Source: a virus. Taken from it: a stretch of 64,000 nt of DNA. The stretch lies in IMG/VR virus record IMGVR_UViG_3300020159_002019, positions 45,291-109,290 of that record; one strand, written 5' to 3'. The notes under the pieces are model-generated. The model was given only the letters and a program-made list of their open reading frames with translations. It was not told the DNA's origin and did not search any database. Numbering within the stretch: position 1 is the first letter of the stretch; each line of letters starts with the position of its first letter. Below are positions 31,244 to 45,468 of this stretch, in pieces. Both the position numbers and the translations under genes were made by a program.

Positions 31244-32191
31244 ATGGATTATTCACTTATTACAGATTTAGTTGTTTCAATATTTGGAAACATTAAAAAA
31301 ACTTATCACGGAAACTCACAAGTAACCGTTGATTGTCCTTTGTGTTCCGCCGATAAAGGTGTTGAATATGATGGGAAAGGAAACCTTGAAATAAACCTTG
31401 AACAAGGATTATCTCATTGTTGGTCTTGCGAAAGAACACCCGGAACAATTGATGGACTTATTAAAAAGTTCGGAAATAAACCCCAATATAAGACATTTAA
31501 AGTTATTGCCCCTGAATATGATTACCAAATCAATAAAAGAAAATATACTAAAAAAGATAATAACATTACGGAGTTTCCAAAAGAATTTATCCCGTTCTCA
31601 ACAATAAATAAAAGAAACTATATCCACCTTCAACCATATAATTACATTATATCGAGAGGTTATACAGATGAATTATTAAAGGAATATAATATAGGGTTTT
31701 GTTTAGAAGGGAAATATAAACAAAGAATAGTAATACCATTATACGATAAGAAAGGTAATATTATTTATTTCTCAACCAGGTCATATACAGGTGCTAAACA
31801 AAAATATCTAAATCCTGATACAGATAAAGATGATTTAATATTTAATGAAAATAGAATTGATTGGGAAAAACCATTATATATTACAGAAGGTGTATTTGAT
31901 GGATTACCAATACCTAACCATTTCTTATTATTAGGGAAATCATTATCGGAGTTTAAATGGAAAACAATATATGATAACGCTAAATCGGATATTGTAATTG
32001 CTTTAGATCCTGACGCTAAAGAACAGACGTATAGAATGTATCAGAAGTTAAATGCTGGTAAATTAAGGAATAAAGTATTTGTATTACAATATACCGATGA
32101 TAGGGATTTAGGTAAATTATTTGAAAATAAAAAAGATTTTAACGATACGATATTGAATTACAGATATTTAAGTGAATTTGAAATAATTTAA
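31244..32191 (+). CDS. DNA primase (Zn-finger + TOPRIM)
   Basis: CPLC...HCWSC; RIVIP; KYLNP; ITEGVFD; ALDPD. Confidence 0.85.
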   Translation: MDYSLITDLVVSIFGNIKKTYHGNSQVTVDCPLCSADKGVEYDGKGNLEINLEQGLSHCWSCERTPGTIDGLIKKFGNKPQYKTFKVIAPEYDYQINKRKYTKKDNNITEFPKEFIPFSTINKRNYIHLQPYNYIISRGYTDELLKEYNIGFCLEGKYKQRIVIPLYDKKGNIIYFSTRSYTGAKQKYLNPDTDKDDLIFNENRIDWEKPLYITEGVFDGLPIPNHFLLLGKSLSEFKWKTIYDNAKSDIVIALDPDAKEQTYRMYQKLNAGKLRNKVFVLQYTDDRDLGKLFENKKDFNDTILNYRYLSEFEII

Positions 32192-32291
32192 TTTAAAAAA
32201 CATTTGGAAGTATAAAAAATTATATTACCTTTGTGGTATGAAAAATTAATTACATATTTAATGGTAATTATTTAAAAAAAATAAAAAAAAG

Positions 32292-32322
32292 TTTGACAAT
32301 TAAAAAAAAAGTAGTATCTTTG
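32292..32322 (+). promoter_or_regulatory. Bacteroidota-type primary-sigma promoter for tRNA operon 1
   Basis: TTTG-N19-TATCTTTG; a second copy (TTTG-N19-TACCTTTG) at 32203-32233. Confidence 0.75.
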
Positions 32323-32368
32323 TATCACAAATAAGAAAAACATACTATTTATTAGTAAGAAAATATAT

Positions 32369-32441
32369 CGTGGAGTAGTAGCAGTGGTAGCTCGCAAGGC
32401 TCATAACCTTGAGGTCGGTGGTTCGAATCCATCCTCCGCAA
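32369..32441 (+). tRNA. tRNA-fMet (CAT), initiator
   Basis: Cloverleaf, caagg-ctcataa-ccttg, C1:A72 mismatch. Confidence 0.9.
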
Positions 32442-32479
32442 CAATTTAAAAAAAGTAAAACAATTAAAAAAAAAAGATT

Positions 32480-32557
32480 ATGACAACAATTATTAACATA
32501 TTTGAATTTAACGTGATTGAGGATAGAAGCCTCGGTTTGGGATATCTTTGTGTCTAA
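32480..32557 (+). CDS. Leader peptide 1 (MTTIINIFEFNVIEDRSLGLGYLCV), putative attenuator peptide
   Basis: Ile/Phe/Glu/Asp-rich; contains GGTTTGGG complementary to the terminator 5' arm. Confidence 0.7.
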   Translation: MTTIINIFEFNVIEDRSLGLGYLCV

Positions 32558-32584
32558 TAATGTGTAGTTAGAATGAATTAAAAG

Positions 32585-32615
32585 AAACCCAAACCTAATA
32601 AGTTTGGGTTTTTTT
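32585..32615 (+). terminator. Attenuator terminator 1
   Basis: aaacccaaac-ctaataa-gtttgggttt plus T-tract, directly before tRNA-Asp. Confidence 0.8.
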
Positions 32616-32640
32616 GTTTTATATTGTTATTTGAAAATAC

Positions 32641-32716
32641 GGTTCATAGGTCAAATGGTTAAGATATCTCCCTGTCACGGAGTATGGAGCGGGTTCGATT
32701 CCCGTATGAACCGCCA
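32641..32716 (+). tRNA. tRNA-Asp (GTC)
   Basis: ctcc-ctgtcac-ggag; GGTTCGATT; encoded CCA. Confidence 0.9.
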
Positions 32717-32722
32717 AAATAG

Positions 32723-32799
32723 GGTATCAGGGGCTGCTGGGTGTGGCTACTTGACTGTCACTCAAGAAAAACAGGTGGGTTCGAATCCCATTGGTACCG
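32723..32799 (+). tRNA. tRNA-Asp (GTC), second divergent copy
   Basis: cttga-ctgtcac-tcaag; GGTTCGAATCC. Confidence 0.8.
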
Positions 32800-32810
32800 C
32801 AAAAATAAAT

Positions 32811-32884
32811 GTTCCGTTGGACAAATTGGTTAAGTCGTTTCCCTTTCAAGGAAAAGATTGCGGGTTCAAATCCCGTACGGAATA
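32811..32884 (+). tRNA. tRNA-Glu (TTC)
   Basis: tttcc-ctttcaa-ggaaa. Confidence 0.9.
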
Positions 32885-32891
32885 CAAAAAT

Positions 32892-32964
32892 GGGTTTATA
32901 GTGAAATTGGTGATCACGCATCCCTGATAAGGATGTATTATAGGTTCAAATCCTATTAGACCTA
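32892..32964 (+). tRNA. tRNA-Ile (GAT)
   Basis: catcc-ctgataa-ggatg. Confidence 0.85.
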
Positions 32965-32970
32965 CAATAT

Positions 32971-33043
32971 GGTGCAGTGGCAGATAAGGTTATTGCGGCG
33001 GACTGAAAATCCGTAGGAGTCGGATCGTTACCGACCTGCACCA
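32971..33043 (+). tRNA. tRNA-Phe (GAA)
   Basis: gcgga-ctgaaaa-tccgt; variant T-loop. Confidence 0.85.
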
Positions 33044-33052
33044 CAATAATAT

Positions 33053-33126
33053 ACTACCATAGCTCAATTGGTGAGAGCAGGATGCTTATACCATCAAGGT
33101 TGTCGGTTCAAATCCGGTTGGTAGTA
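33053..33126 (+). tRNA. tRNA-Ile (TAT)
   Basis: gatg-cttatac-catc; canonical D and T arms. Confidence 0.8.
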
Positions 33127-33131
33127 CAAAT

Positions 33132-33202
33132 GGGATAAAAGCACATAAGGATGTGCAGACCCTAAACAGGGTAAGGATTGGGTTCGAATCCCAGATATTC
33201 CA
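33132..33202 (+). tRNA. tRNA-like element with shortened anticodon loop (undetermined)
   Basis: D stem gcac/gtgc and T arm GGTTCGAATCC present; accct-aaac-agggt gives only a 4-6 nt loop. Confidence 0.55.
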
Positions 33203-33220
33203 CAAAAAAATTAAAAAAAG

Positions 33221-33251
33221 TTTGGAAATAATAAAAAAAGGAGTATCTTTG
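33221..33251 (+). promoter_or_regulatory. Bacteroidota-type promoter (near-leaderless mRNA)
   Basis: TTTG-N19-TATCTTTG, 4 nt before ATG. Confidence 0.7.
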
Positions 33252-33255
33252 TAGT

Positions 33256-34113
33256 ATGGCAAAAATAGAAACATTAAAAGCAAAATTCCCTAATATAACC
33301 GAACAAACATTTATTCGTTTATTTGAGGGTGACAAGACATCTACTAAAAAGTATGCTGAATTTTTACTTTCCGCTTGGAATAGAAAAGGGACAAATTATG
33401 GTGGTTTAAGGGGTGTTGATGACTATATTAAATTGGTTGAGAATTTTGAGAAATTAACCCCTTATATTGATAATAAGGATATATACTCTTATGGAGATAT
33501 TCAATCAATAGTTGGTGTTGTTAAAATAGCTGAAGCCGAAAAAAATGAAAAATCTTTTGATAAAGATGAACACATTTCAGTTATTGAAGAAACTGAAGAT
33601 TATATCTTTTTGATACCTAAAACACACGTTGGTTCATTAAAATATGGTTCTAATACTAAATGGTGCACAGCGGCATCAACAAGTCCTGGAACTTTTAAAT
33701 CATATATTGATAGAGGTTTTTTAGCTTATTTAGTTGATAAGAAAAATAAAAAGACGAATAATCAAAATAAATTGGCTTTTTATTTTACAAATAAAGAAAA
33801 CTTACTTACACAAGTAATCCAAATCTTTAATCAATTAGATTCACTTGTAAATGAAAACCAAGTAATACAGAGTGGTTGGGATATTATGTTATTGAGTAAT
33901 CTTATAACTAAATTGAGGGTTTTCTTATTTGAGTTTAAGGAGAAAGAAAAAGTTAGGGTTGAAGTATCTAAAACAATTCAACAATTGAATCAAATCAATT
34001 ACGATAACTTCTTTAATGCTTTAAATACGTTAAAGATAAATCCTGAGAATGTTGAAGAATTGAAAAACGCTTTAGGGTTAGTTAAAACTTCAATGAAAAA
34101 AATCAAAGTATGA
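33256..34113 (+). CDS. Hypothetical protein, YG-x-x-(T/S)KWC repeat family
   Basis: GSLKYGSNTKWCTA motif shared with three other ORFs. Confidence 0.6.
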   Translation: MAKIETLKAKFPNITEQTFIRLFEGDKTSTKKYAEFLLSAWNRKGTNYGGLRGVDDYIKLVENFEKLTPYIDNKDIYSYGDIQSIVGVVKIAEAEKNEKSFDKDEHISVIEETEDYIFLIPKTHVGSLKYGSNTKWCTAASTSPGTFKSYIDRGFLAYLVDKKNKKTNNQNKLAFYFTNKENLLTQVIQIFNQLDSLVNENQVIQSGWDIMLLSNLITKLRVFLFEFKEKEKVRVEVSKTIQQLNQINYDNFFNALNTLKINPENVEELKNALGLVKTSMKKIKV

Positions 34114-34460
34114 GGAGTGTAAAACAAATCAAAAAGTTAAGATATACTAATGATTGGGTGTCAAATGTTGATGATTCAAATATAACTTATCGTCTTTTTA
34201 CTTATAATGGTTTAACTTGGAATGTTATTTTAACTAACCGACAAGAATTAGGTGGTTGGACAATAAGGTTATGTAATAATGATGGTGATGAATTATACAT
34301 TTTTAATTCAGGTGTGAATAGAATGTCCATATCAATAAATGACGATTTAATTTACGAATTAGATGGTTGGTATTATGAAAATATAACTGAATTGAAGAAT
34401 AGGTTAGAAAACGATTTAATCGTATTATTAAGGAAATATGAGGAGTATATCAAAAATTAG
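34110..34460 (+). CDS. Hypothetical protein
   Basis: 116-aa ORF, ATGA-coupled. Confidence 0.5.
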   Translation: MRSVKQIKKLRYTNDWVSNVDDSNITYRLFTYNGLTWNVILTNRQELGGWTIRLCNNDGDELYIFNSGVNRMSISINDDLIYELDGWYYENITELKNRLENDLIVLLRKYEEYIKN

Positions 34461-34770
34461 GGTAAGTGTAAAACAAGATTTTCAAGAATGGTTGGAAAAA
34501 ACTACCATTAGTAGATGGATGCCAAGACATAGAATAATATGTAATGATGGGTTTTCTATGTCAGTTCAGGGTGGTGAGTTTACATATTCAAACCCAAGAC
34601 AATTTGGTAGTAGTTTTACTGAAATGGAGATTGGGTTTCCTTCTGAGTATGAAGAATTGATTAGTAGTTATTCTGACTCTAATGAATATACTCAAACTGT
34701 TTATCCATATGTCCCAGTAAGTTTAATTATTGAAGTGATTGAAAAACACGGAGGAATAAAAAAAGATTAG
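34438..34770 (+). CDS. Hypothetical phage protein
   Basis: CNDGFSMSVQ...EIGFPS...VYPYVP..IEKHGG. Confidence 0.6.
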   Translation: MRSISKIRVSVKQDFQEWLEKTTISRWMPRHRIICNDGFSMSVQGGEFTYSNPRQFGSSFTEMEIGFPSEYEELISSYSDSNEYTQTVYPYVPVSLIIEVIEKHGGIKKD

Positions 34771-34787
34771 AAAAAAATAAAAAAAGA

Positions 34788-34818
34788 TTTGACAAGTTAA
34801 AAAAAAATGTTATCTTTG
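34788..34818 (+). promoter_or_regulatory. Bacteroidota-type promoter for tRNA operon 2
   Basis: TTTG-N19-TATCTTTG. Confidence 0.75.
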
Positions 34819-34897
34819 TATAACAAATGGGATATGAAAATATTTTTTAGATTTCCTTGACAAAAACAAAAAAACAAACTATTTATAAATTAAAGAT

Positions 34898-35008
34898 ATG
34901 AAAAACACGAATAAAAATATGACTATGGTTGTGAAAGCAACGGCAAAAGGTGGGAATAGAAATACCACACTTGGTTTAGGGCGTGTTATGTCTTTAATGG
35001 ATAGATAA
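34898..35008 (+). CDS. Leader peptide 2 (MKNTNKNMTMVVKATAKGGNRNTTLGLGRVMSLMDR), putative attenuator peptide
   Basis: First 24 residues are all K/N/T/M/V/A/G/R; contains GGTTTAGGG antiterminator. Confidence 0.75.
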   Translation: MKNTNKNMTMVVKATAKGGNRNTTLGLGRVMSLMDR

Positions 35009-35032
35009 TACAATAATATAAAAAGATATATT

Positions 35033-35069
35033 AAAAACCCTGAACCATAAAAAAGTTCAGGGTTTTTTT
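35033..35069 (+). terminator. Attenuator terminator 2
   Basis: aaaaaccctgaac-cataaaaaa-gttcagggttttttt, directly before tRNA-Thr. Confidence 0.8.
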
Positions 35070-35077
35070 ATTTATAA

Positions 35078-35149
35078 TCCAGATTAGTTTAATTGGGAAA
35101 ACACGTCTCTTGTAAAGATGAAAAGTTGGTTCGAATCCGACATTTGGAT
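35078..35149 (+). tRNA. tRNA-Thr (TGT)
   Basis: cgtct-cttgtaa-agatg; GGTTCGAATCC. Confidence 0.85.
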
Positions 35150-35255
35150 CAAAGAAAATAGTAAAAAATTAATTAAAAATATGAAACGAAAACAGTAGGG
35201 TGTATGATCAATTAGGAATAGGTTGCATACACTAAAAATTAAAAAAAATGTATAT

Positions 35256-35343
35256 GCACCTATGGCTTAATTGGTAGAGCAACCGGCTTTTAACCGGTGG
35301 GGTAGACGAAAGTCCGTTGAAGGTTCGAGTCCTTCTGGGTGCA
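35256..35343 (+). tRNA. tRNA-Lys (TTT) with long variable arm
   Basis: accgg-cttttaa-ccggt; extra gac-gaaa-gtc hairpin. Confidence 0.8.
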
Positions 35344-35349
35344 CAATTT

Positions 35350-35422
35350 ACTTTCGTAGCTTAATTGGTAAAGAAACTAACTCTTAATTAGTGTGATGTG
35401 AGTTCGAGTCTCACTGGAAGTA
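35350..35422 (+). tRNA. tRNA-Lys (CTT)
   Basis: actaa-ctcttaa-ttagt. Confidence 0.8.
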
Positions 35423-35449
35423 CTAAATGTTATTTGAAATATTATAAAT

Positions 35450-35522
35450 TGGGATGTAACTCAGAGGCTAGAGTGTTTGCCTGTTAAGCAAAAAGTCGAG
35501 ATATCGTAATTCTCCATCCCAG
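35450..35522 (+). tRNA. tRNA-Asn (GTT)
   Basis: tttgc-ctgttaa-gcaaa; atypical T-loop. Confidence 0.75.
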
Positions 35523-35583
35523 CAAAAATTGAAAGATAAACGTATGAAACAAAGGAATGTAGTGGTTTATTAAGTAAATATAT

Positions 35584-35655
35584 GGCTCTATCGTTTAACG
35601 CATAAGACATTTCTCTTCTAAAGAAAGAATAGGGGTTGGATTCCCTTTAGAGCCA
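35584..35655 (+). tRNA. tRNA-Arg (TCT)
   Basis: tttct-cttctaa-agaaa. Confidence 0.8.
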
Positions 35656-35659
35656 CAGC

Positions 35660-35687
35660 AATCCAAGTTCGATTCTTGGTGGGAGTA
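35660..35687 (+). pseudogene. Orphan tRNA 3' half (T arm + acceptor strand)
   Basis: ccaag-ttcgatt-cttgg-tgggagta with no matching 5' half. Confidence 0.55.
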
Positions 35688-35696
35688 CAAAAAAAT

Positions 35697-35767
35697 ACCT
35701 TCTTAGTTAAATGGGAGAATATCTGTTTTACATACAGAAGATAACTGTTCGATTCAGTTAGGGGGTA
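35697..35767 (+). tRNA. tRNA-Val (TAC)
   Basis: tctgt-tttacat-acaga. Confidence 0.8.
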
Positions 35768-35819
35768 CAAAAAAAGATTTGATTTTTTAAAAAAAATTAT
35801 TATCTTTAAAAAACAATAT

Positions 35820-35892
35820 GGGGTTATGGTATAGTTGGCGAACACAGTAGCTTTGCAAGCTTCAGTCCCGAGTTCAAATCTCGGTAGCTCCA
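35820..35892 (+). tRNA. tRNA-Ala (TGC)
   Basis: agc-tttgcaa-gct; G3:U70 pair. Confidence 0.85.
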
Positions 35893-35895
35893 CAA

Positions 35896-35965
35896 TGTTT
35901 CACTTAGAATAAAAACAAACGCTTAATAGCAACAAACTCTTAATTTGTCAATTATTAGTGAAACA
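35896..35965 (+). repeat. CACTTAGAATAA stem element, copy 1
   Basis: Closing stem tgtttcact/agtgaaaca. Confidence 0.6.
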
Positions 35966-35968
35966 AAT

Positions 35969-36039
35969 GTCGATATAGTTAAATGGGATAACACCCCTCT
36001 CATCAAGGGAAGTTATTGGTTCGAATCCAGTTATCGATA
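35969..36039 (+). tRNA. tRNA-Met (CAT), elongator (Ile2 not excluded)
   Basis: ccct-ctcatca-aggg; GGTTCGAATCC. Confidence 0.75.
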
Positions 36040-36050
36040 CCCTGAAATAA

Positions 36051-36127
36051 TATTTCACTTAGAATAAAAAACTATTTGAATTTATCCTCCAATGGAGGGT
36101 GTATTTAATCCAATTAATAGTGAAATA
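36051..36127 (+). repeat. CACTTAGAATAA stem element, copy 2
   Basis: Closing stem tatttcact/agtgaaata; internal cctcc/ggagg hairpin. Confidence 0.6.
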
Positions 36128-36130
36128 AAT

Positions 36131-36203
36131 GCGGGTGTAGCTCAATTGGTAGAGCGCGACCTTGCCAAGGTCGAGGCTGTGGGATCGTACCCCATCACCC
36201 GCT
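36131..36203 (+). tRNA. tRNA-Gly (GCC)
   Basis: cgacc-ttgccaa-ggtcg. Confidence 0.9.
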
Positions 36204-36206
36204 CAT

Positions 36207-36412
36207 TGAGTAAGAGGTACTCAGTAGTCTTTAATCCAAGACTCATTTAACAATGGATTCGCTTAAATCGGACAGCGAAAATGCCGGTTCTTAGGAATAA
36301 GGAGCGAAGCACACCTCCCCTTCGTAGTGTGACTATTTTTAATGGGGATGCCCTTCAGGTTTTTGGAAAGAAGAAAACCGAAATGACTACTCACCTAAAT
36401 CTCAAGGTGGGG
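36207..36412 (+). ncRNA. Candidate structured ncRNA between the two tRNA-Gly genes
   Basis: GC-richer than genome; several hairpins, a long-range stem and two possible pseudoknots. Confidence 0.45.
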
Positions 36413-36419
36413 TAAACAA

Positions 36420-36491
36420 GCGAGTATCGTATAATGGCTATTATACCACGCTTCCAACGTGGGGATGTGATTTCGATTATCACTACTCGCT
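36420..36491 (+). tRNA. tRNA-Gly (TCC)
   Basis: ccacg-cttccaa-cgtgg. Confidence 0.85.
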
Positions 36492-36520
36492 CCGGACGTT
36501 TTAGAAATCAGTAATATTTT

Positions 36521-36552
36521 TTTGGTATTACTGATTTTTTTTATTACCTTTG
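36521..36552 (+). promoter_or_regulatory. Bacteroidota-type promoter
   Basis: TTTG-N20-TACCTTTG. Confidence 0.65.
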
Positions 36553-36568
36553 TAGAAATAATAAAATT

Positions 36569-37018
36569 ATGACACTTAAAGAACAAATTCAAAAAGACTT
36601 CATCACGGCTATGAAAAATAAAGATGAATGGACTAAATCCGCTCTAAGTGGGTTAAAATCAAAGATTACTGAAGCTGAAAAAGTTAATGGAACAGAATTA
36701 TCAGACGCTGATATTCTTAAACTAATTAATAAAGGTATTAAACAAAGGGAAGAATCTGCTACTATATATAGTGAAGCAGGTCGTCCGGAATTAGCTGCGA
36801 AAGAATTACTTGAACTTAATGTTTTAATGGATTATATGCCAGCTCAAATGACTGATGAGGAAATTGAAACGGCTGTAAGGGAAATTATTGTTGGATTACC
36901 TACAATGACAAACGCAAATGCCTTGTCAGGAAAAACTATGGGTGAATTCAATAAAAAGTATCAAGGAATGGCTGATTCTAAAAGAGTTTCAGAAATTATA
37001 AAAAAAGTTGTATCATAA
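36569..37018 (+). CDS. GatB/YqeY domain protein
   Basis: MTLKEQIQKDFITAMKNKD...KQREESATIYSEAGRPELA.KE..EL.VL..YMPAQM. Confidence 0.9.
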   Translation: MTLKEQIQKDFITAMKNKDEWTKSALSGLKSKITEAEKVNGTELSDADILKLINKGIKQREESATIYSEAGRPELAAKELLELNVLMDYMPAQMTDEEIETAVREIIVGLPTMTNANALSGKTMGEFNKKYQGMADSKRVSEIIKKVVS

Positions 37019-37062
37019 TTTGACTTTCAATAAACAATAAACTATAATTAAAAAACAAAAAT

Positions 37063-37173
37063 GGGGGGTAATTTTTTAGTGGATTGAAAATACCACTTAG
37101 AATAACTCTAAACTATATTGGTAAAAGTTTGACTAATAATCAAATATAGAAGGTTCGAACCCTTCACCCCCCG
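37063..37173 (+). ncRNA. tRNA-like RNA (AAT loop) with ~40-nt insertion carrying CACTTAGAATAA copy 3
   Basis: ggggggt/acccccc acceptor, tttga-ctaataa-tcaaa arm, gaagg-ttcgaac-ccttc T arm. Confidence 0.6.
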
Positions 37174-37203
37174 CAATTATTAACAATATAAAACATAAAG
37201 TAT

Positions 37204-39042
37204 ATGACAGAATTAGTAAAAGAAAAAATGAAGTTATCTAACACATTAGATACATTACAATTTTTAAGAACCGCTAAAGGTGCTTCAGATGAAAAAATTC
37301 ATTTGGCTTTAGATAAAGCCTATGCTGAAACAACATCTAATGGAGTTGAGGAAATGTTATATAGAATTATGTTTCATATTGGAGATATTTCAAGAAAGCA
37401 TAATATCTTTAAAGAATTTGAAATCAACTCAGAAGTGGGTGGGGCTCAAGAAAGAAAGATATTTAGATCTTGTGTAAGATGGATGCAAAAGAACACCCCA
37501 GAGTTCTTGCATAACAACTTAAAGTTAGTAGTTGAATATACTTCATACGAAACTTTAATGTATTACCAAGTAAGCACAAACAGATATTTGGGTAATGTTA
37601 TGGGTGTTGAAAAACTATTCATTGACAACCAATATTTGTTCCCTTTCTTAAAGTCTGAGATTGAATCAGGTGTAAACTTGAACTTAATCGCAAGACACTT
37701 ACCTAAATATGCTACAGGTAAGCAAAGAACAACTAAAAAGACTTTAGTTGGTAAAAGGGGAAGAACTGAATTCAGTTGGACATTACCGAAAGGTAAGACT
37801 TGGGTTAAAATCAATGGAAACCTTGTAAATGGTGATAAAATCACGGTTAAGCATGGTGATGTTGCTGAATACCCAAGAGAAAAGAAATCTGAGTCTTTAA
37901 CAAGACAAAGTTTCTTAAACAAGTGGATTAAGGATTTCTGTGATTATATGAAATGGACAATCGCTGATTACAAAGCATTTAAGGGTAAGCAGAATACTGC
38001 TGAACAAAAAATGTCAAGTGGTTCAGTAATGTCTATGACAGAAGATCAATTTAATGGTTTCTTGGATTCTTTGACTGCGGGACAAAGAAAAAGGGTTGTA
38101 AAATCATTGGGTAATCCTAAATGGGGACAGCTAACTAAATGGTATAAGGCTTGGGAAGATGACCAATCTAACTTAGCTGAAAAAATTAGAAAAGCTACCA
38201 CACCTGCTGAAAAAGCCGCTTTGATGAAAGATTTCAAAGTTAAAACAACAGGGGATCAAACAATTGATTTGTTGGCTGAAATGCTTGGTAAGGGTTTAAA
38301 TGCTCAACAAGTAAATAACAACTATCAATCAATGATTGAGAGAATGAACATTAAACATTCAGTATTTCCAATTATTGACGGTTCGGGTTCTATGGATAGT
38401 ACTTTTGACCATAACGGTGTAGGAATATCTAACAGACAAGTAGCATACGCAATGGCAATTGCATTTACTACAATGAATCCAAACCCAAGATTTAGAAATA
38501 CTTATGGTTGGTTCTCAAACGACTTTAAGGTTTTTGGTAGGTCTGAGTATGGTGATACCTATATATCTATGTTTAAGAATGTGGATAAGTATGTAAGTCA
38601 TACAAAGACTTTTACTGAGAATTACAGATTACTTATGGAGACAGATCCAAAAGAAATTACATCTACAAATATGTTTGCTTCGGTAGAATATTTTGTAAAT
38701 CTTGTGAAAACAGGAAGATGTACTATGGAAGAATTACCTGAAACATTACTTTATCTTACAGATAATGAGTATAATTCAGGTAAATCACCAAAAGAAGCGG
38801 TTACTTTAGCCAATTCAATTGGATGGAGACCAAAGTTAATTTTTTGGGGTATTACCACAATGACTCATTCTATTAAGGAAGAGTTAAAATATACTCCGAA
38901 TGGTTTATTCATCGGTGGTTTCAACGAAAGTTGTTTATCACAAATCTTGGATGGAATCTCAAAAGATTCAATAAATCCAGAAGATGAATTGTGGGCTATT
39001 TATAACGATATTCGTTATAGTGTAATTAAAGTAGGTGAATAA
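37204..39042 (+). CDS. DUF2828/TROVE-like protein with C-terminal vWA domain
   Basis: GGAQERKIFR N-terminal motif; IIDGSGSM MIDAS; STNM; LLYLTDNEYN; PKLIFW. Confidence 0.65.
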   Translation: MTELVKEKMKLSNTLDTLQFLRTAKGASDEKIHLALDKAYAETTSNGVEEMLYRIMFHIGDISRKHNIFKEFEINSEVGGAQERKIFRSCVRWMQKNTPEFLHNNLKLVVEYTSYETLMYYQVSTNRYLGNVMGVEKLFIDNQYLFPFLKSEIESGVNLNLIARHLPKYATGKQRTTKKTLVGKRGRTEFSWTLPKGKTWVKINGNLVNGDKITVKHGDVAEYPREKKSESLTRQSFLNKWIKDFCDYMKWTIADYKAFKGKQNTAEQKMSSGSVMSMTEDQFNGFLDSLTAGQRKRVVKSLGNPKWGQLTKWYKAWEDDQSNLAEKIRKATTPAEKAALMKDFKVKTTGDQTIDLLAEMLGKGLNAQQVNNNYQSMIERMNIKHSVFPIIDGSGSMDSTFDHNGVGISNRQVAYAMAIAFTTMNPNPRFRNTYGWFSNDFKVFGRSEYGDTYISMFKNVDKYVSHTKTFTENYRLLMETDPKEITSTNMFASVEYFVNLVKTGRCTMEELPETLLYLTDNEYNSGKSPKEAVTLANSIGWRPKLIFWGITTMTHSIKEELKYTPNGLFIGGFNESCLSQILDGISKDSINPEDELWAIYNDIRYSVIKVGE

Positions 39043-39053
39043 CCTACTTTTTT
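39028..39053. terminator. Bidirectional terminator
   Basis: aaagtaggt/acctacttt between convergent genes. Confidence 0.65.
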
Positions 39054-39271
39054 TATGCCTTTATTTTAACCACAACCTCACCTTCATTATTAGTGGTTAG
39101 ATAATATTCTTTTTTGTTTGTAAATCCATATTTTTTAGATATGTTTGATTCTATCCTTTTTTTGGTTGATGGTGTGTTAGCAAATGTAATATGTGGTTGA
39201 ACATATTCATCTTTGAATTGTTCCATTTTATTTACCGTTTCTTTAATAATTCTCTTAATTAAATTTTTCAT
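39053..39271 (-). CDS. Small hypothetical protein
   Basis: MKNLIKRIIKE N-terminus; TATTTAT motif upstream on minus strand. Confidence 0.55.
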   Translation of the reverse strand: MKNLIKRIIKETVNKMEQFKDEYVQPHITFANTPSTKKRIESNISKKYGFTNKKEYYLTTNNEGEVVVKIKA

Positions 39272-39338
39272 ATAAATAAATATTTGGTTTTATGAAAACT
39301 ATTATTTATATTTGTATTGTAATTAAAAAATAAAATAT

Positions 39339-40004
39339 ATGTATAATAACAAAACAGATTTTAACAAATTCGCAACATCGCATATGGGTATATCGTCTTT
39401 ATACCTCGATGATCTTCAATCGTCAATGACACCTCACATCTTAGAAGAAAGACCGACAAGAGCAAATCTTATGTCAGTATTTGATAGATTGATGCAAGAT
39501 AGGATTATTTGGGTTGCCGGTGCGGTTGATGAGGGTATGTCACAAGTTATTCAAGCGCAATTGATTTACTTGTCAAACTCAGACCCTAAGAAAGAAATTA
39601 CGATGCACATTGACACTCCTGGTGGTTCAGTAAAGGCTGGATTATCAATCGTGGATGTAATGGATTATGTTAAACCTGACATTAGAACAATCAATACAGG
39701 TATGGCGGCATCAATGGGTTCAGTATTGTTAGGCGCTGGAACCAAAGGAAAAAGAATGTCTTTAAGATTTTCACAAACAATGCTACACCAATCTTCAGGT
39801 GGTGTGAGAGGAAATATTCAGGATGCTAGGATAACAATGATTGAATGGGAAAAAATAAATGATTTGTTATTTAATTTGTTAGGTGGGTATTGTGGTAAGG
39901 ATGCTATCCAAGTAAAAGAAGATGCTTCTCGTGATTTATGGTTAAGTTCTGAAGAAGCGTTGGCTTATGGGATAATTGACGAAATAATCAAACCAAAAAA
40001 ATAA
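39339..40004 (+). CDS. clpP: ATP-dependent Clp protease proteolytic subunit
   Basis: DTPGGSV, GMAASMGSVLL (catalytic Ser), MLHQ, RDLWLSSEEALAYGIID. Confidence 0.95.
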   Translation: MYNNKTDFNKFATSHMGISSLYLDDLQSSMTPHILEERPTRANLMSVFDRLMQDRIIWVAGAVDEGMSQVIQAQLIYLSNSDPKKEITMHIDTPGGSVKAGLSIVDVMDYVKPDIRTINTGMAASMGSVLLGAGTKGKRMSLRFSQTMLHQSSGGVRGNIQDARITMIEWEKINDLLFNLLGGYCGKDAIQVKEDASRDLWLSSEEALAYGIIDEIIKPKK

Positions 40005-40015
40005 TTAAAAAAAAG

Positions 40016-40046
40016 TTTGACAATTAGAAAAAAAATATTATCTTTG
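40016..40046 (+). promoter_or_regulatory. Bacteroidota-type promoter for tRNA operon 3
   Basis: TTTG-N19-TATCTTTG. Confidence 0.75.
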
Positions 40047-40121
40047 TATTATAAATGGGATGTGAAAAATATTTTTCACATTTCCATAACAAAAACAAAA
40101 AAACAAACTATTTAATATAAA

Positions 40122-40256
40122 ATGAAAACATTAATTAACATATCATTATCGTCATTGTATCTATTACAGTCGCTATGCCAAAGTTGTGTTTCGGTATTAC
40201 CGTTACATCAGTATTGGTTAGTGCTAGGATTTAGTGCGGTGGGTATGTTAAGTTGA
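40122..40256 (+). CDS. Leader peptide 3 (MKTLINISLSSLYLLQSLCQSCVSVLPLHQYWLVLGFSAVGMLS), putative attenuator peptide
   Basis: 24 of residues 8-33 are S/L/Y/Q/C/P/H/W; contains GGATTTAG antiterminator. Confidence 0.75.
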   Translation: MKTLINISLSSLYLLQSLCQSCVSVLPLHQYWLVLGFSAVGMLS

Positions 40257-40278
40257 TAAGACAATAATATACCTTATT

Positions 40279-40320
40279 AAACCCCCTAAATCCGTATAAA
40301 TGAGATTTAGGGGGTTTTTT
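40279..40320 (+). terminator. Attenuator terminator 3
   Basis: aaaccccctaaatc...gatttagggggtttttt, before tRNA-Pro. Confidence 0.8.
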
Positions 40321-40354
40321 ATTTTAGTTATTTGACATATTGTATTAGAAATAT

Positions 40355-40427
40355 CAGGGTGTATATCAATTGGGAGATTACTCCATTTGGATTGGAGAGG
40401 TTGTAGGTTCGAGTCCTATCACCCTGA
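40355..40427 (+). tRNA. tRNA-Pro (TGG)
   Basis: ctcca-tttggat-tggag. Confidence 0.85.
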
Positions 40428-40434
40428 CAAATAT

Positions 40435-40505
40435 TCCCCTTTCGTCTAACGGCAGGACAGATGGTTTTGAGCTATCGAATCGAGGTTCGAATCCTTGAGG
40501 GGGAA
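40435..40505 (+). tRNA. tRNA-Gln (TTG)
   Basis: gatgg-ttttgag-ctatc; U1:A72. Confidence 0.85.
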
Positions 40506-40557
40506 CCGGTTTGGGTTTTACACTTTTAAACTTACGAGATAAGGAAAAAGTGAAATT

Positions 40558-40628
40558 GGGATGATGCCGAGAGTGGTCAGACGGTCTGTAAAACCGAACT
40601 GCATAGTGTTTGAGTCACTTCCATCCCA
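40558..40628 (+). tRNA. tRNA-Tyr (GTA), atypical with short variable region
   Basis: cggt-ctgtaaa-accg; degenerate D and T arms. Confidence 0.65.
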
Positions 40629-40638
40629 CAAAATAAAC

Positions 40639-40712
40639 GTAAGTGTAGTGAACAATGGCTAACACGTTCGGTTCCAACCCGAAAGATGTGGGTTCGACCC
40701 CTACCACTTGCG
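40639..40712 (+). tRNA. tRNA-Trp (CCA)
   Basis: ttcgg-ttccaac-ccgaa; G73. Confidence 0.85.
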
Positions 40713-40719
40713 CAAATAA

Positions 40720-40814
40720 GGAGAGGTGCTAGAGATGGATTATTGGGCTAGTCTTGAAAACTAGAGATCGTCAGTGATGGGGATCCGTGGGTTCGAATCC
40801 CACTCTCTCCTCCA
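40720..40814 (+). tRNA. tRNA-Ser (TGA)
   Basis: ctagt-cttgaaa-actag; long variable arm; CCA. Confidence 0.9.
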
Positions 40815-40819
40815 AATAT

Positions 40820-40898
40820 GGGTTTGTTGGTGTTAATTGGATGAGCATTTACGATTGTGGCTCGTAAGGTGAGGGGTTCGAATCCCCCATAAACCCCA
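40820..40898 (+). tRNA. tRNA-His (GTG)
   Basis: tacga-ttgtggc-tcgta; G-1:C73. Confidence 0.85.
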
Positions 40899-40978
40899 AA
40901 AGTAAGGAATTAGGTTATTATACGTAGGCTCCGAGTGTAATAACTGAAATTTAGATCCTTATGAACTTCGGTCCGCAG

Positions 40979-41066
40979 GGAGAATTGACAGAGTGGTAAT
41001 GTATCGGTTTGCTAATCCGTAGTCTATGTAAAAGTAGCGGGGGCTCGAATCCCTCATTCTCCGCCA
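40979..41066 (+). tRNA. tRNA-Ser (GCT)
   Basis: ttgctaa loop; long variable arm; G73 then CCA. Confidence 0.8.
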
Positions 41067-41075
41067 AAAATAAAT

Positions 41076-41164
41076 GCTTCTGTGGCGAAATTGGTAGCAC
41101 GCGATGGACTTAAAATCCATTGGGAAATAACAGTACCGTGTCGGTTCGATTCCGACCAGAAGTA
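41076..41164 (+). tRNA. tRNA-Leu (TAA)
   Basis: atgga-cttaaaa-tccat; long variable arm. Confidence 0.9.
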
Positions 41165-41171
41165 CAAACAT

Positions 41172-41257
41172 ACCCCAATGTTGGAATGTAGACAACCTAG
41201 TTTTAGAAACTAGTGTGAAGTAATAGTAGCGTCTGGGTTCAAATCCCAGTTGGGGTA
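41172..41257 (+). tRNA. tRNA-Leu (TAG)
   Basis: ctagt-tttagaa-actag; long variable arm. Confidence 0.85.
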
Positions 41258-41263
41258 CAAAAT

Positions 41264-41351
41264 GGGAATGTGGTGTGAGTGGTTGAAACCGGGGGTCTGC
41301 AAAACCCCAAAAACGAAAGTTTTCACGTCAGTTCGAATCTGATCATTCCCT
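41264..41351 (+). tRNA. tRNA-Cys (GCA) with long variable arm
   Basis: ggggt-ctgcaaa-acccc; aaaac-gaaa-gtttt extra arm; U73. Confidence 0.8.
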
Positions 41352-41360
41352 CAATTACAT

Positions 41361-41433
41361 GACCCCATAGTTCAATGGATTAGAATACTTGAATACGGAT
41401 CAGGAGATGAGAGTTCAAATCTTTCTGGGGTTA
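41361..41433 (+). tRNA. tRNA-Arg (ACG)
   Basis: cttga-atacgga-tcagg. Confidence 0.8.
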
Positions 41434-41440
41434 CAAAAAG

Positions 41441-41466
41441 AAAACCATTTTTATATGGTTTTTTTT
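41441..41466 (+). terminator. Terminator ending tRNA operon 3
   Basis: aaaaccat/atggtttt plus T-tract. Confidence 0.6.
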
Positions 41467-41489
41467 ATGCCATTACATATTTATTACAT

Positions 41490-44162
41490 ATGATTATTAT
41501 TGAAGGAAAATTAGAAGATTTATCTAAGAAATATATACCGAAGTTTAATAGGGATTCATTTACTGAAGGTTTAACCCCTGAATCTGTTATTGAGCATTTA
41601 TATGTTTCAGATCCATCACCAACAAAGAAATACTTTGAGTGGATGATTAAAGAATGTTTGGGATTGATAGAACGTAATTATGTTATTAACAATGAAAAAA
41701 TAGCTAAACTTGTAACGGATATCCAAGAATTTGATAGAAATATTGATAAACTTAGTCAGGATTTTTTAGATTATAATAAAGAAGAAATTGGTGAAATTGC
41801 GTATAAGTTTTTAAATGGTAAGGCTTTAAAAGATATTGGTACATATAATTACGATATTTTAAGAAAAATAATACCTTCATTGGTAGAATATAAGACAGAA
41901 AGTCAAAGAAGAAGATTGGCTAAAGAAGGTGCTAAAATTATATTTCAAGATGAAAAATATGATGTTTATGAAATAGATACTTATGACGCTTCTTGTTTTT
42001 ATGGTCAAGGTTCTAAATGGTGTACAACTTATAAACAAAGTGATTCACATTTTAAATCATATGGTACTGGTAGGAATAAATTATTATATGTTATTAGTAA
42101 AACTAAGACAAAAGAAACTGATCCTCAATTTTATAAGATTGCTATAAATATAAGGTATGTTGATGAACAAATAACATTTTGGGATGCTCCTGATAATAGT
42201 TTTAATGGTTGGAAATATTTTAGGGAACAAGATCCAAATATTTTAACTTTTTTGATTTCTTATATTAAAGAAAAGAATCCTGAAGGATATCTTAAAATGA
42301 TACCTGAAAACTATTTAATAACGATTAAACAAGAAGAAGAAGGTTTAAGTGATTTAAATATTATTTCGGTTTTAGATGTTGATAAATCTAGTGATTGGTT
42401 AAGTCATAAATATGGGTTAAATGGTGTGGATACTATTATTAAAAAATTGGATATATTACAAGGTAATGTCAGTAATTTTTTAGGTGATTATTTTACCAGT
42501 GATGAAAAAGAGTATTTAATCATAAAAAGAAGTGAGAAATTAGAACCAAGAGGTTTGTCGTGGAAAGATTTAGTTAAAAGTTATCACCAATTAGCAATTA
42601 CTCTAGATAGCTATCAACCAAGTTGGTTTATTGATAATTTTTTAGGTGGGGATAAAAACAAAGCGTTAGAAATTGGGACAAAAGAACCGATAGTACTATA
42701 TTGGTTGGCTAGAGGTAGTGTTAATATAAAGGATTTGGGTGATTTATATGGAGCTGAAAAACTTGTTAAATATATTACTAAAAGTAAAGTTAAAGTTATT
42801 TTTGGGTTAAGTGATATATTGGGTGGTTTATTTACAAATGAAACTCCAAAGAAAAGAAAGGAGTTATATGAAATTGCTTATAAGTATGATGGCAAAAAAA
42901 GGAATATTGAATTAGTCGATTATTTGTCTAGACGTATGGGTAAAGAGGGATTCATTGCGTCATTTAATAAAGGTGATGGATATGGAATTGAACCTGATTC
43001 ATATGGAAGAGCATTTTTATATGTTAAAAATAATAACCCTGATTTAATAAGTAATGTATTTAACATTGAGGATATTAGTAAAATCTTCAAGTCAAACGAA
43101 AAAGCGTTTACTTATTTATTAAAAAATTATGATGAATTTACACGTAATTTAGATATTAGTGATTTAACTGAAATGTTTAGTGGTGATGTTCCTGATAGTA
43201 TATATGGTAAATATATGAGTGATTGGGAAAAGAGGAATGTTGCGTCAATATATAGAATGAAAAATGGTTCTGAAAAACTATTTGATTTTGTTCTTAAAAA
43301 GTTTTCTTTTAAAAAGTTAGCCGATATCATCGGATATGATGGAGTATTTCAATTATTTTCTATTGTTAAGTTTAAAAAAGGTATAAACTATATGATTGAA
43401 AATAAGGTTGGCGATATCGCTATTGATGATATAAAAATAAAAGATGGTAAGGTGGTATTGGTTGTTAATGATAGAACGGATTATGCGTTTTTATTTGATG
43501 ATGAAGATTTGGCTAAAACTATATTGGGTGAAGATATGGATTGGGAACCGTATAACGATACTATTTATAATTGGTATGATCAAGTATGGGATTGTATGGT
43601 ACCAAAATCAATTGAACTGGTTAAGTCTTGGATTAAAAGTAATATAACAGATTATGAGAATGATGAAGGTGAAAAAATTGATTTAGGTGATACATATTTA
43701 AATGAAATAGATGATGATGATTTGGGTAAAATAATAGATGAGTACGATGAATTTAGGGATTTAAAAAATGAGATGAGTTGGGCTTATGATAATGGTTATA
43801 ATTCTGTTGCTCAAAGTGATATTATTAGTAAAACACAAGATCAATTAGAAGAATATTTAGGTAGTTATATAGGGTATGAACCAGTTAAAAAGAATGGTCG
43901 TAGATATAATAAAGAAACAGGTAATTCTGAATCATACGAATATACAGCATATGAATACTTATATAATGTGGGTGATGGTTTATATGATATATTATATGAT
44001 TATGCAACTACTAATTGGGGTCATTCGGTTGATTACAACACATATTTTAGCACTTTATTAAAGGATTCTGACCCTAAAAAGTTATATATTGATACTGAGG
44101 CTTATCCAGACGATAAAGAAATTTGTGAGTATTTTAATGATGATTTACCGGAAAGAATATGA
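41490..44162 (+). CDS. Large hypothetical protein, YG-KWC family with acidic C-terminal domain
   Basis: DPSPTKKYFEW; ASCFYGQGSKWCTT. Confidence 0.6.
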   Translation: MIIIEGKLEDLSKKYIPKFNRDSFTEGLTPESVIEHLYVSDPSPTKKYFEWMIKECLGLIERNYVINNEKIAKLVTDIQEFDRNIDKLSQDFLDYNKEEIGEIAYKFLNGKALKDIGTYNYDILRKIIPSLVEYKTESQRRRLAKEGAKIIFQDEKYDVYEIDTYDASCFYGQGSKWCTTYKQSDSHFKSYGTGRNKLLYVISKTKTKETDPQFYKIAINIRYVDEQITFWDAPDNSFNGWKYFREQDPNILTFLISYIKEKNPEGYLKMIPENYLITIKQEEEGLSDLNIISVLDVDKSSDWLSHKYGLNGVDTIIKKLDILQGNVSNFLGDYFTSDEKEYLIIKRSEKLEPRGLSWKDLVKSYHQLAITLDSYQPSWFIDNFLGGDKNKALEIGTKEPIVLYWLARGSVNIKDLGDLYGAEKLVKYITKSKVKVIFGLSDILGGLFTNETPKKRKELYEIAYKYDGKKRNIELVDYLSRRMGKEGFIASFNKGDGYGIEPDSYGRAFLYVKNNNPDLISNVFNIEDISKIFKSNEKAFTYLLKNYDEFTRNLDISDLTEMFSGDVPDSIYGKYMSDWEKRNVASIYRMKNGSEKLFDFVLKKFSFKKLADIIGYDGVFQLFSIVKFKKGINYMIENKVGDIAIDDIKIKDGKVVLVVNDRTDYAFLFDDEDLAKTILGEDMDWEPYNDTIYNWYDQVWDCMVPKSIELVKSWIKSNITDYENDEGEKIDLGDTYLNEIDDDDLGKIIDEYDEFRDLKNEMSWAYDNGYNSVAQSDIISKTQDQLEEYLGSYIGYEPVKKNGRRYNKETGNSESYEYTAYEYLYNVGDGLYDILYDYATTNWGHSVDYNTYFSTLLKDSDPKKLYIDTEAYPDDKEICEYFNDDLPERI

Positions 44163-44944: not shown

Positions 44945-45468
44945 AAGCCACGAAATTCCGTAATATCCACAGGAACACATAAGATTTTATTATAAAAAGT
45001 TTTATACCCACCACGAGTTTTTTCGGTTTCAGCTTCAATCCTATTAGGATCTACAACTTTATAATATTTAACATTTGTTTCACTATCCGCATACCCAACA
45101 AAATCACCCAATTCTATATCACATTTCTTTTCTTCCAATTGTTTTTTATAAACATAAAATGTAAGATTGCCATAATCCTCATAGAATAATGTACCATTAG
45201 GGTTATATGATTTTGGAGCATTATCCTCAATACTTACCAATACTTTCAGTTCAATTGGGGGTTTAAATCTTATTTCATCTTGAAGAGTTTCTCCGTAAAT
45301 ATCGTCATAATTTGTTTTTTGTCTGTCTATTTGATATAAGACAACTGTAAAGTTATTATCATCTTCTAGGTATTCGCGGCCCATTTCTATGTCAAGCGAA
45401 AAATCTACATCGTCATACCATTTTGATAATCTGGTAATAGGTATTTTTTTGTTATTTAATGGATTCAT
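44941..45468 (-). CDS. Putative neck/head-closure protein (gp14-like)
   Basis: DDIYGE...FKPPIEL...GNLTFYVY...IELGDF pattern; TATTTAT upstream. Confidence 0.5.
   Translation of the reverse strand: MNPLNNKKIPITRLSKWYDDVDFSLDIEMGREYLEDDNNFTVVLYQIDRQKTNYDDIYGETLQDEIRFKPPIELKVLVSIEDNAPKSYNPNGTLFYEDYGNLTFYVYKKQLEEKKCDIELGDFVGYADSETNVKYYKVVDPNRIEAETEKTRGGYKTFYNKILCVPVDITEFRGF

Follow-up and report, generated by a model that had tools for sequence, protein, structure and literature searches.

We describe a putative ribosome-mediated transcription attenuator placed ahead of an array of phage transfer RNA (tRNA) genes in a 64,000-nt stretch, hereafter the window, of the IMG/VR virus record IMGVR_UViG_3300020159_002019 (positions 45,291 to 109,290). 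The source record has 109,290 bp at 29% G+C and, as CheckV estimates its completeness at 34%, we read it as a fragment of a jumbo phage. ARAGORN and Rfam recover 27 tRNA genes in three arrays within the window. In the first of these, unit 1, a promoter is followed by an initiator-like tRNA-Met, a 25-codon open reading frame (ORF), an intrinsic terminator, and tRNAs for Asp, Asp, Glu, Ile, Phe and Ile, in that order. The codons of the ORF match the tRNAs encoded beyond a terminator that is predicted to be switchable; hence, these tRNAs are probably made only when the ribosomes run short. Judging from the sequence, we consider it likely that unit 1 is a leader-peptide attenuator of a phage tRNA operon. 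This proposal draws on the anatomy of the unit, the codon-anticodon match, the predicted alternative pairings, conservation in relatives, and the covariation of leaders with arrays. The decisive support comes from outside unit 1: the leaders of units 2 and 3 in the window, and those of at least four more families in relatives, track their own arrays.

Anatomy of unit 1

The elements of unit 1 and its immediate surroundings are as follows.

32203..32233, plus strand: promoter-like site (TTTG, 19 nt, TAnnTTTG), directly after a primase-like gene
32292..32325, plus strand: unit 1 promoter, a 34-nt consensus that also heads units 2 and 3 (TTTG/19 nt/TAnnTTTG part at 32292-32322)
32369..32442, plus strand: initiator-like tRNA-Met(CAT), 5' of the leader and outside the terminator gate (ARAGORN; Rfam 50.4 bits)
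32480-32557, plus strand: leader ORF of 25 codons with A-rich upstream context; second stop at 32558-32560
32489..32524, plus strand: putative sensing stretch, codons 4-15, with 9 of 12 codons for Ile, Phe, Glu or Asp
32515..32537, plus strand: predicted 1:2 hairpin (anti-antiterminator), free energy -7.7 kcal/mol
32534..32549, plus strand: predicted antiterminator 5' strand (region 2), within the ORF, 6-21 nt before the stop codon
32581..32616, plus strand: intrinsic terminator (regions 3 and 4), a 14-pair hairpin with U tract, free energy -15.6 kcal/mol
32641..33127, plus strand: gated array of tRNA-Asp(GTC), Asp(GTC), Glu(TTC), Ile(GAT), Phe(GAA) and Ile(TAT) (ARAGORN, Rfam)
33132..33202, plus strand: tRNA-like element closing array 1 (Rfam 23.8 bits, cut-off 29)

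An earlier note on this DNA had proposed an attenuator at this locus, and the parts that such a device would use, a short ORF, cognate codons, a 1:2 hairpin, a 2:3 pairing and a terminator, are all present in unit 1, be it as sequence or as predicted fold. Its count of nine Ile, Phe, Glu and Asp among residues 4-15 is recovered at 32489-32524. Likewise, the three ATT and one ATA codons that it matched to tRNA-Ile(GAU) and tRNA-Ile(UAU) are there, as are genes for both of these tRNAs, and the two Asp, the Glu and the Phe tRNAs that it assigned to the array are called by ARAGORN and Rfam alike. The range that it gave for the unit, up to 33202, holds as far as 33127, where the six array tRNAs end; the remainder is occupied only by the sub-threshold element at 33132-33202. 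This element adopts a cloverleaf fold in which a 4-nt loop replaces the anticodon loop, is kept in the close relatives, and is assigned an unlikely AAA anticodon when ARAGORN is run with relaxed settings.

The predicted RNA switch

The octamer GGTTTGGG at 32534-32541, inside the leader ORF, and CCCAAACC at 32588-32595 are perfect reverse complements, a complementarity already pointed out by the earlier note and plain from the sequence. CCCAAACC belongs to the 5' arm of the 14-pair terminator hairpin, which is followed by a T run. When the full-length leader RNA is folded free, the predicted structure comprises the terminator and the hairpin 32515-32537, whose 5' strand lies in codons 12-15 and whose 3' strand extends over the initial bases of GGTTTGGG. 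When the terminator 3' arm is omitted, the minimum-energy fold contains the 8-bp GGTTTGGG/CCCAAACC helix, with inner helices extending it. The predicted energy of this 2:3 pairing (span 32534-32595) is -18.3 kcal/mol, beside the values for 1:2 and 3:4 listed above, and the pairing and the terminator are predicted to be mutually exclusive. The antiterminator duplex of unit 1 beats 97% of dinucleotide shuffles (shuffle fraction 0.030), and the corresponding fractions for units 2 and 3 are 0.023 and 0.017.

We infer from this arrangement both that the ORF is translated and the direction in which the switch operates. The strong promoter would fire and the initiator-like tRNA-Met would be transcribed unconditionally, after which a ribosome would translate the 25-codon leader as RNA polymerase nears the terminator. 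With charged tRNA-Ile (both species), tRNA-Phe, tRNA-Glu and tRNA-Asp in plentiful supply, the ribosome would reach the stop codon. As the in-ORF strand ends 6 nt before this codon, a terminating ribosome would cover part of it; by covering 32534-32549, or by leaving that strand sequestered, it would allow the terminator to form and the tRNA genes to stay silent. Slow decoding of any of the sampled codons would instead stall the ribosome in codons 4-13, so that the 1:2 hairpin would be prevented or opened. A ribosome held at codons 4-13 is predicted to leave the in-ORF strand free, and this strand could then pair with the terminator 5' arm, permitting read-through into the Asp-Asp-Glu-Ile-Phe-Ile array. 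According to the same model, stalls at codons 4-5 would leave the 5' strand of the 1:2 hairpin (codons 12-15) uncovered. The newly made tRNAs would relieve the stall and thereby close a negative feedback loop; units 2 and 3 would act likewise on the other two arrays. The signal might be scarcity of either tRNA or amino acid, and a stall cannot separate the two. We also considered the reverse logic, wherein fast translation physically blocks the terminator, and rejected it, given that the stop codon lies at least 23 nt before the hairpin.

Codon content of the three leaders

Units 2 and 3 of the window share the layout of unit 1.

34788..36493, plus strand: unit 2, with promoter 34788-34818, leader 34898-35008 and terminator 35033-35067; ten tRNAs, Thr, Lys, Lys, Asn, Arg-TCT, Val, Ala, Met, Gly and Gly
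40016..41434, plus strand: unit 3, with promoter 40016-40046, leader 40122-40256 and terminator 40281-40315; ten tRNAs, Pro, Gln, Trp, Ser, His, Ser, Leu, Leu, Cys and Arg-ACG

Codon usage in 96 long ORFs, 26% of which consists of Asp, Glu, Ile and Phe codons, served as the background. Codons 4-15 of leader 1 include Ile as ATT (three times) and ATA (once), Phe as TTT (twice), Glu as GAA and GAG, and Asp as GAT. The resulting 9/12 cognate codons in the best window correspond to a scan-corrected simulation p of 0.0077, and leader 1 ranks seventh for the Asp/Glu/Ile/Phe class among the 417 ATG-initiated ORFs of 20-60 codons in the six frames of the 109-kb record. All five anticodon species of array 1 have a cognate codon in the leader. 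The other two leaders each rank first of the 417 for their own class: in unit 2 all 23 of codons 2-24 are readable by its ten tRNAs (raw p 6.6e-9), and in unit 3 the set of its own array accounts for 22 of the 26 codons 8-33 (raw p 3e-10). Scoring leaders 1, 2 and 3 against the three codon classes yields a strongly diagonal matrix (9/9/5, 1/29/5 and 3/11/27, respectively).

Leaders and arrays covary across phage lineages

Four IMG/VR contigs share the units of the window. The unit 1 leader ORF is intact in all four of these close relatives, and leader and terminator are almost invariant, the changes amounting to one synonymous substitution and, in the 3' part, two replacements. A scan with a unit-1-type terminator pattern, which served as a control, returned 32 contigs, and only in three close relatives do tRNAs lie behind the hairpin. 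One relative has four replacements in the sensing part of unit 2, and three of these still fall in the set of the array. In unit 3 of another, a Cys codon is replaced by Arg-CGC, which is read by the Arg(ACG) tRNA of that array. The most diverged unit 3 homologue, in L023, has 10 of 26 sensing positions replaced, with 20 of 26 still in the set of its array, and a CTT codon appears in it along with a new Leu(AAG) tRNA. Thus, residue order drifts and composition is held, as would be predicted for a codon sensor and not for a functional peptide.

Beyond these contigs, a 317-kb phage encodes a homologue of a neighbouring gene with 37% identity and carries two leader/array units in which the tRNAs are grouped differently.

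First unit of the 317-kb relative: array Pro, Asn, Asp, Gly, Gly, Thr; 13 of 16 central leader residues drawn from this set
Second unit of the 317-kb relative: array Glu, Phe, Cys, Trp, Tyr, Met, Gln, Arg, His; 16 of 20 leader residues drawn from this set plus Ser, a Ser tRNA being present further downstream

A scan with the unit-2-type terminator recovered 44 viral contig loci, 33 of them with a tRNA no more than 150 nt downstream. In every one of these 33 an ATG-initiated ORF ends 25-38 nt before the terminator; its length is 27-43 codons, except in one locus with truncated upstream sequence, where it has 19. The tRNAs are combined into arrays in different ways among these phages, and the leaders vary along with them. 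Scoring at the codon level was applied to 14 units of seven leader families, with arrays delimited by a fixed rule. The true pairing of leaders and arrays over the seven families is the best of 5040 permutations, for each of four choices of representatives. In five units, codons 2-24 of the leader sample each of the 10-15 anticodon species of the array, an outcome seen in none of 200,000 random draws (P<5e-6). In one instance, a homologous leader stands before an array devoid of Val, Lys and Ile tRNAs, and its Val codon, its Lys codon and two of its three Ile codons have been replaced.

The pairing strands also show a compensatory change: a T-to-C substitution in the 5' arm of the terminator is matched by an A-to-G substitution in the in-ORF strand, synonymous for Ser, which keeps the antiterminator pairing perfect in both lineages (one case, from a single alignment). 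The best-conserved part of the leaders is this RNA pairing strand, and the Gly-Leu-Gly encoded there comes from its GGTTTRGG motif.

A further small ORF and terminator lie about 590 nt before an Asp-Glu-Met...Thr...Tyr array in L026 (6374-6500); the ORF has Asp, Glu, Met, Thr and Tyr codons, and this may be another, looser unit. In the cultured phage collection, blastn with unit 1, a unit of L029 and a unit of the 317-kb relative, and tblastn with an 890-amino-acid neighbour, gave only tRNA-level matches. Four other homologues of the neighbouring 285-amino-acid gene are fragments without tRNAs.

An initiator-like tRNA outside the proposed gate

The earlier note placed an initiator tRNA between the promoter and the leader. 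Its position is as described, and a C1xA72 mismatch agrees with an initiator identity; the anticodon stem of the tRNA-Met at 32369-32442 has only two of the canonical three G-C pairs next to the loop. Among 14 Met(CAT) tRNAs from 11 loci, position 1:72 is unpaired only in the tRNA upstream of leader 1, where the window has C-A and a relative likewise has a mismatch. In the Met tRNAs inside gated arrays 1:72 is paired, and their leaders, among them that of unit 2, contain internal ATG codons. The upstream position of the mismatched tRNA-Met is kept in all four close relatives. Its sequence differs in two relatives, unlike the near-invariant leader 1 and terminator. In L067 (880-1300, minus strand), the 3' end of a protein-coding ORF lies directly upstream of leader 1, with the tRNA-Met about 750 nt upstream; the inserted ORF may be a mobile endonuclease-type gene. 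The ungated position fits the logic that an elongation sensor could not report on the initiator tRNA, as judged from one lineage only.

Promoters, host and neighbouring features

Seven TTTG-N19-TAnnTTTG sites occur in the window, where 0.85 would be expected, and none of 100 shuffles reaches seven. The 34-nt promoter consensus is found with zero mismatches only at 32292, 34788 and 40016 in the 64 kb, none being expected by chance. The promoter motif alone suggests a Bacteroidota host. A search of bacterial genomes for YqeY homologues returned only distant matches (33% and 28% identity) from unrelated phyla.

Three ORFs lie between array 2 and unit 3. The first (36569-37018), after array 2, encodes a YqeY-like protein (Pfam E 5e-38), the second (37204-39042) a protein of 612 amino acids with no Pfam match at E 0.001, and the third (39339-40004), before unit 3, a ClpP-like protease (E 3e-57). 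Spacers at 36205-36419 (215 nt, array 2) and 40898-40978 (81 nt, array 3) have no tRNA or other Rfam match, and the close relatives have equivalent spacers. A motif of about 25 nt (TTTGAC, TATTGG and an A-rich run ending in a TATAAT-like sequence) stands right before the first tRNA of many arrays belonging to several leader families, at 40322-40354 in the window and also in L023, L029, L026, L038 and L066; its spacing is unsuited to a promoter.

The slot 40508-40638, between tRNA-Gln and tRNA-Trp of array 3, was considered as a tRNA-Tyr gene. A CTGTAAA motif is present in it, and the equivalent slot of the close relative L002 (2039-2121) is occupied by a true tRNA-Tyr(GTA). Neither ARAGORN, even when relaxed, nor Rfam calls a tRNA at 40508-40638, and there is no cloverleaf; hence, Tyr is left out of array 3. 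The window thus has no recognisable Tyr tRNA, though leader 3 has two Tyr codons.

Counter-evidence and alternative explanations

Several observations weigh against the attenuator reading. Leader 1 is unvarying among its four relatives, so there is no covariation of unit 1 itself. Six other small ORFs of the record equal or beat leader 1 in Asp/Glu/Ile/Phe content, and the sampling of all five anticodons in unit 1 alone has a probability of 0.18; the codon statistics of unit 1 alone are modest evidence. The codon-level match is imperfect, with 19 codons matching and 8 failing to match in the cases where only one isoacceptor family is present in the array. Beyond the window, the antiterminator duplex frequently fails to outperform shuffled sequence (14 units, mean z -1.26). 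The contig L003 (780-900, minus strand) has lost the unit 2 leader, the terminator and eight tRNAs, leaving the unit 2 promoter fused to the region just before the Gly-Gly tRNAs, and the gate is therefore dispensable at least there. Finally, some distant units have a good TTTG-N19-TAnnTTTG promoter between the terminator and the first tRNA, giving the layout promoter, leader, terminator, promoter, array. These are the units of the Pro/Asn/Gly/Asp/Thr type in L028, L031, L038 and L066 and the second unit of the 317-kb relative; in the first units of L028, L031, L038 and L066, and in L020 (3590-3555, minus strand), the second promoter overlaps the U tract of the terminator. In such lineages the gate would therefore control only the part of transcription that comes from the upstream promoter.

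The last of these points, together with the modest codon statistics of unit 1 and the commonness of terminators in general, lends some credence to the proposal that the hairpin is a plain terminator or insulator of the promoter/tRNA-Met transcript, that the ORF is no sensor, and that the array is expressed from an unrecognised promoter or by unregulated leaky read-through. It is also helped by the fact that the promoter rules were derived from the motif alone and may not be those of the host. By those rules, there is no TAnnTTTG motif in the 25 nt between the U tract of unit 1 and tRNA-Asp, nor in the terminator-tRNA gaps of units 2 (10 nt) and 3 (33 nt). The nearest candidate for a promoter before tRNA-Asp is a motif one base short at 32627-32633, which we rejected as it is not conserved in the relatives. 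Moreover, a plain terminator accounts neither for the agreement between leaders and arrays in seven families, nor for the constant presence of an intact ORF whose end lies 25-38 nt from the hairpin, nor for the compensatory change in the in-ORF strand. We hence view this explanation as unlikely.

We attach still less weight to a switch independent of translation, whereby a protein or an uncharged tRNA would bind the leader RNA, in the manner of a T-box or of protein-mediated antitermination, and the reading frame would be incidental. The alternative pairings alone do not reveal what selects between them, which leaves room for such a ligand. Nonetheless, Rfam finds no T-box or other riboswitch in 32000-42000 at E values up to 1, only sub-threshold Thr_leader matches over the terminators. 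ATG-initiated ORFs of 25-44 codons are conserved in all the leader families compared, and their residue order changes with composition kept. A single specifier-type contact cannot explain the sampling of up to 15 codon species.

The third proposal, that the small ORFs encode functional micropeptides, each with its own terminator and with a composition reflecting peptide function, is very improbable: the unit 3 leader is hydrophobic, Leu/Ser-rich and membrane-helix-like, and two residues of the unit 1 peptide differ in one of the four close relatives and none in the other three, but compositions differ radically from unit to unit and follow the downstream tRNA set down to rare Cys, Trp, His and Met (each once or twice), the unit 3 homologue changes 10 of 26 residues with the set kept, and it is the RNA pairing strand, the source of the Gly-Leu-Gly, that is best conserved.

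Implications and relation to known systems

Returning to the attenuator reading, we favour, with somewhat less assurance than for unit 1 itself, the broader view that these units provide closed-loop, codon-resolved feedback on phage tRNA operons. A "sampler" leader would carry one or two codons for each tRNA species behind its terminator, the gate would open when any of these is limiting, and such leaders would have diversified, together with their arrays, in several lineages of large uncultured phages. The common view of phage tRNA genes is that they are constitutive helpers in codon usage or spares against host tRNA nucleases, and the control of their expression has hardly been described. 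If our proposal is true, no earlier attenuator would have produced the very molecule that it senses, and the device would be a simple homeostat for decoding capacity by which the phage could replace host tRNAs on demand, for instance when they are depleted or cut in infection. It would also offer a direct test of when phages need their own tRNAs, a compact natural design of a multi-input sensor for synthetic biology, and an annotation rule (small ORF, terminator, tRNA array) that would define phage tRNA operons from sequence.

Full-text searches of the literature did not turn up any account of tRNA genes controlled by leader-peptide attenuation. In Rfam, the best match of the leader to a leader family is Thr_leader (RF00506), at 27 bits against a threshold of 55, over 32544-32618 and thus mainly the terminator. 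Multivalent leader-peptide attenuators are well known from the thr (Thr/Ile) and ilvGMEDA (Ile/Val/Leu) operons, alongside trpL, hisL, leuL and pheL. The mechanism by which leader peptides attenuate enterobacterial amino-acid operons has been summarised (PMC3082878). Like the thr and ilvGMEDA attenuators, unit 1 has a short, putatively translated leader enriched in cognate codons, alternative 1:2, 2:3 and 3:4 hairpins (here predicted from sequence alone) and a terminator before the regulated genes, and a stall at any of several codon types would serve as the shortage signal. Hence, unit 1 would work like the classical attenuators of amino-acid operons; it is not a member of that group, since the genes it would regulate are six tRNA genes, and it has no sequence homology to those attenuators.

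Other systems share single aspects of the arrangement. The pheST attenuator of E. coli, with its pheM leader, controls a synthetase and is keyed to charged tRNA-Phe. It shares with the phage units the leader-peptide control of a component of the translation apparatus and differs in that this component is a synthetase and not a tRNA, in responding to one amino acid, and in being cellular. In the T-box of Firmicutes, uncharged tRNA is bound directly, by means of a specifier codon together with the T-box sequence, and independently of translation. It likewise uses antitermination that reports the state of a specific tRNA, in its case controlling genes for tRNA charging or amino-acid supply; unlike in T-box leaders, the T-box itself is without a match in the region of the three units, as noted above. 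Among published systems, the trn operon of Anabaena PCC 7120 comes nearest: this long tRNA array is kept silent by TrcR until translational stress induces it (PMC8421152, PMC10272220). There, too, an accessory tRNA array is kept off until translation is impaired, but this is achieved by a ribbon-helix-helix repressor, TrcR, at the promoter, with no leader ORF or codon-resolved sensing, on a cellular megaplasmid. As against the attenuators of amino-acid operons, the phage units belong to a viral element and would regulate tRNA genes instead of biosynthetic enzymes, their leaders sample many codon species once or twice each (up to 13-15 in the relatives) where the classical leaders have one to three in tandem, and their product would feed back directly on the stall.

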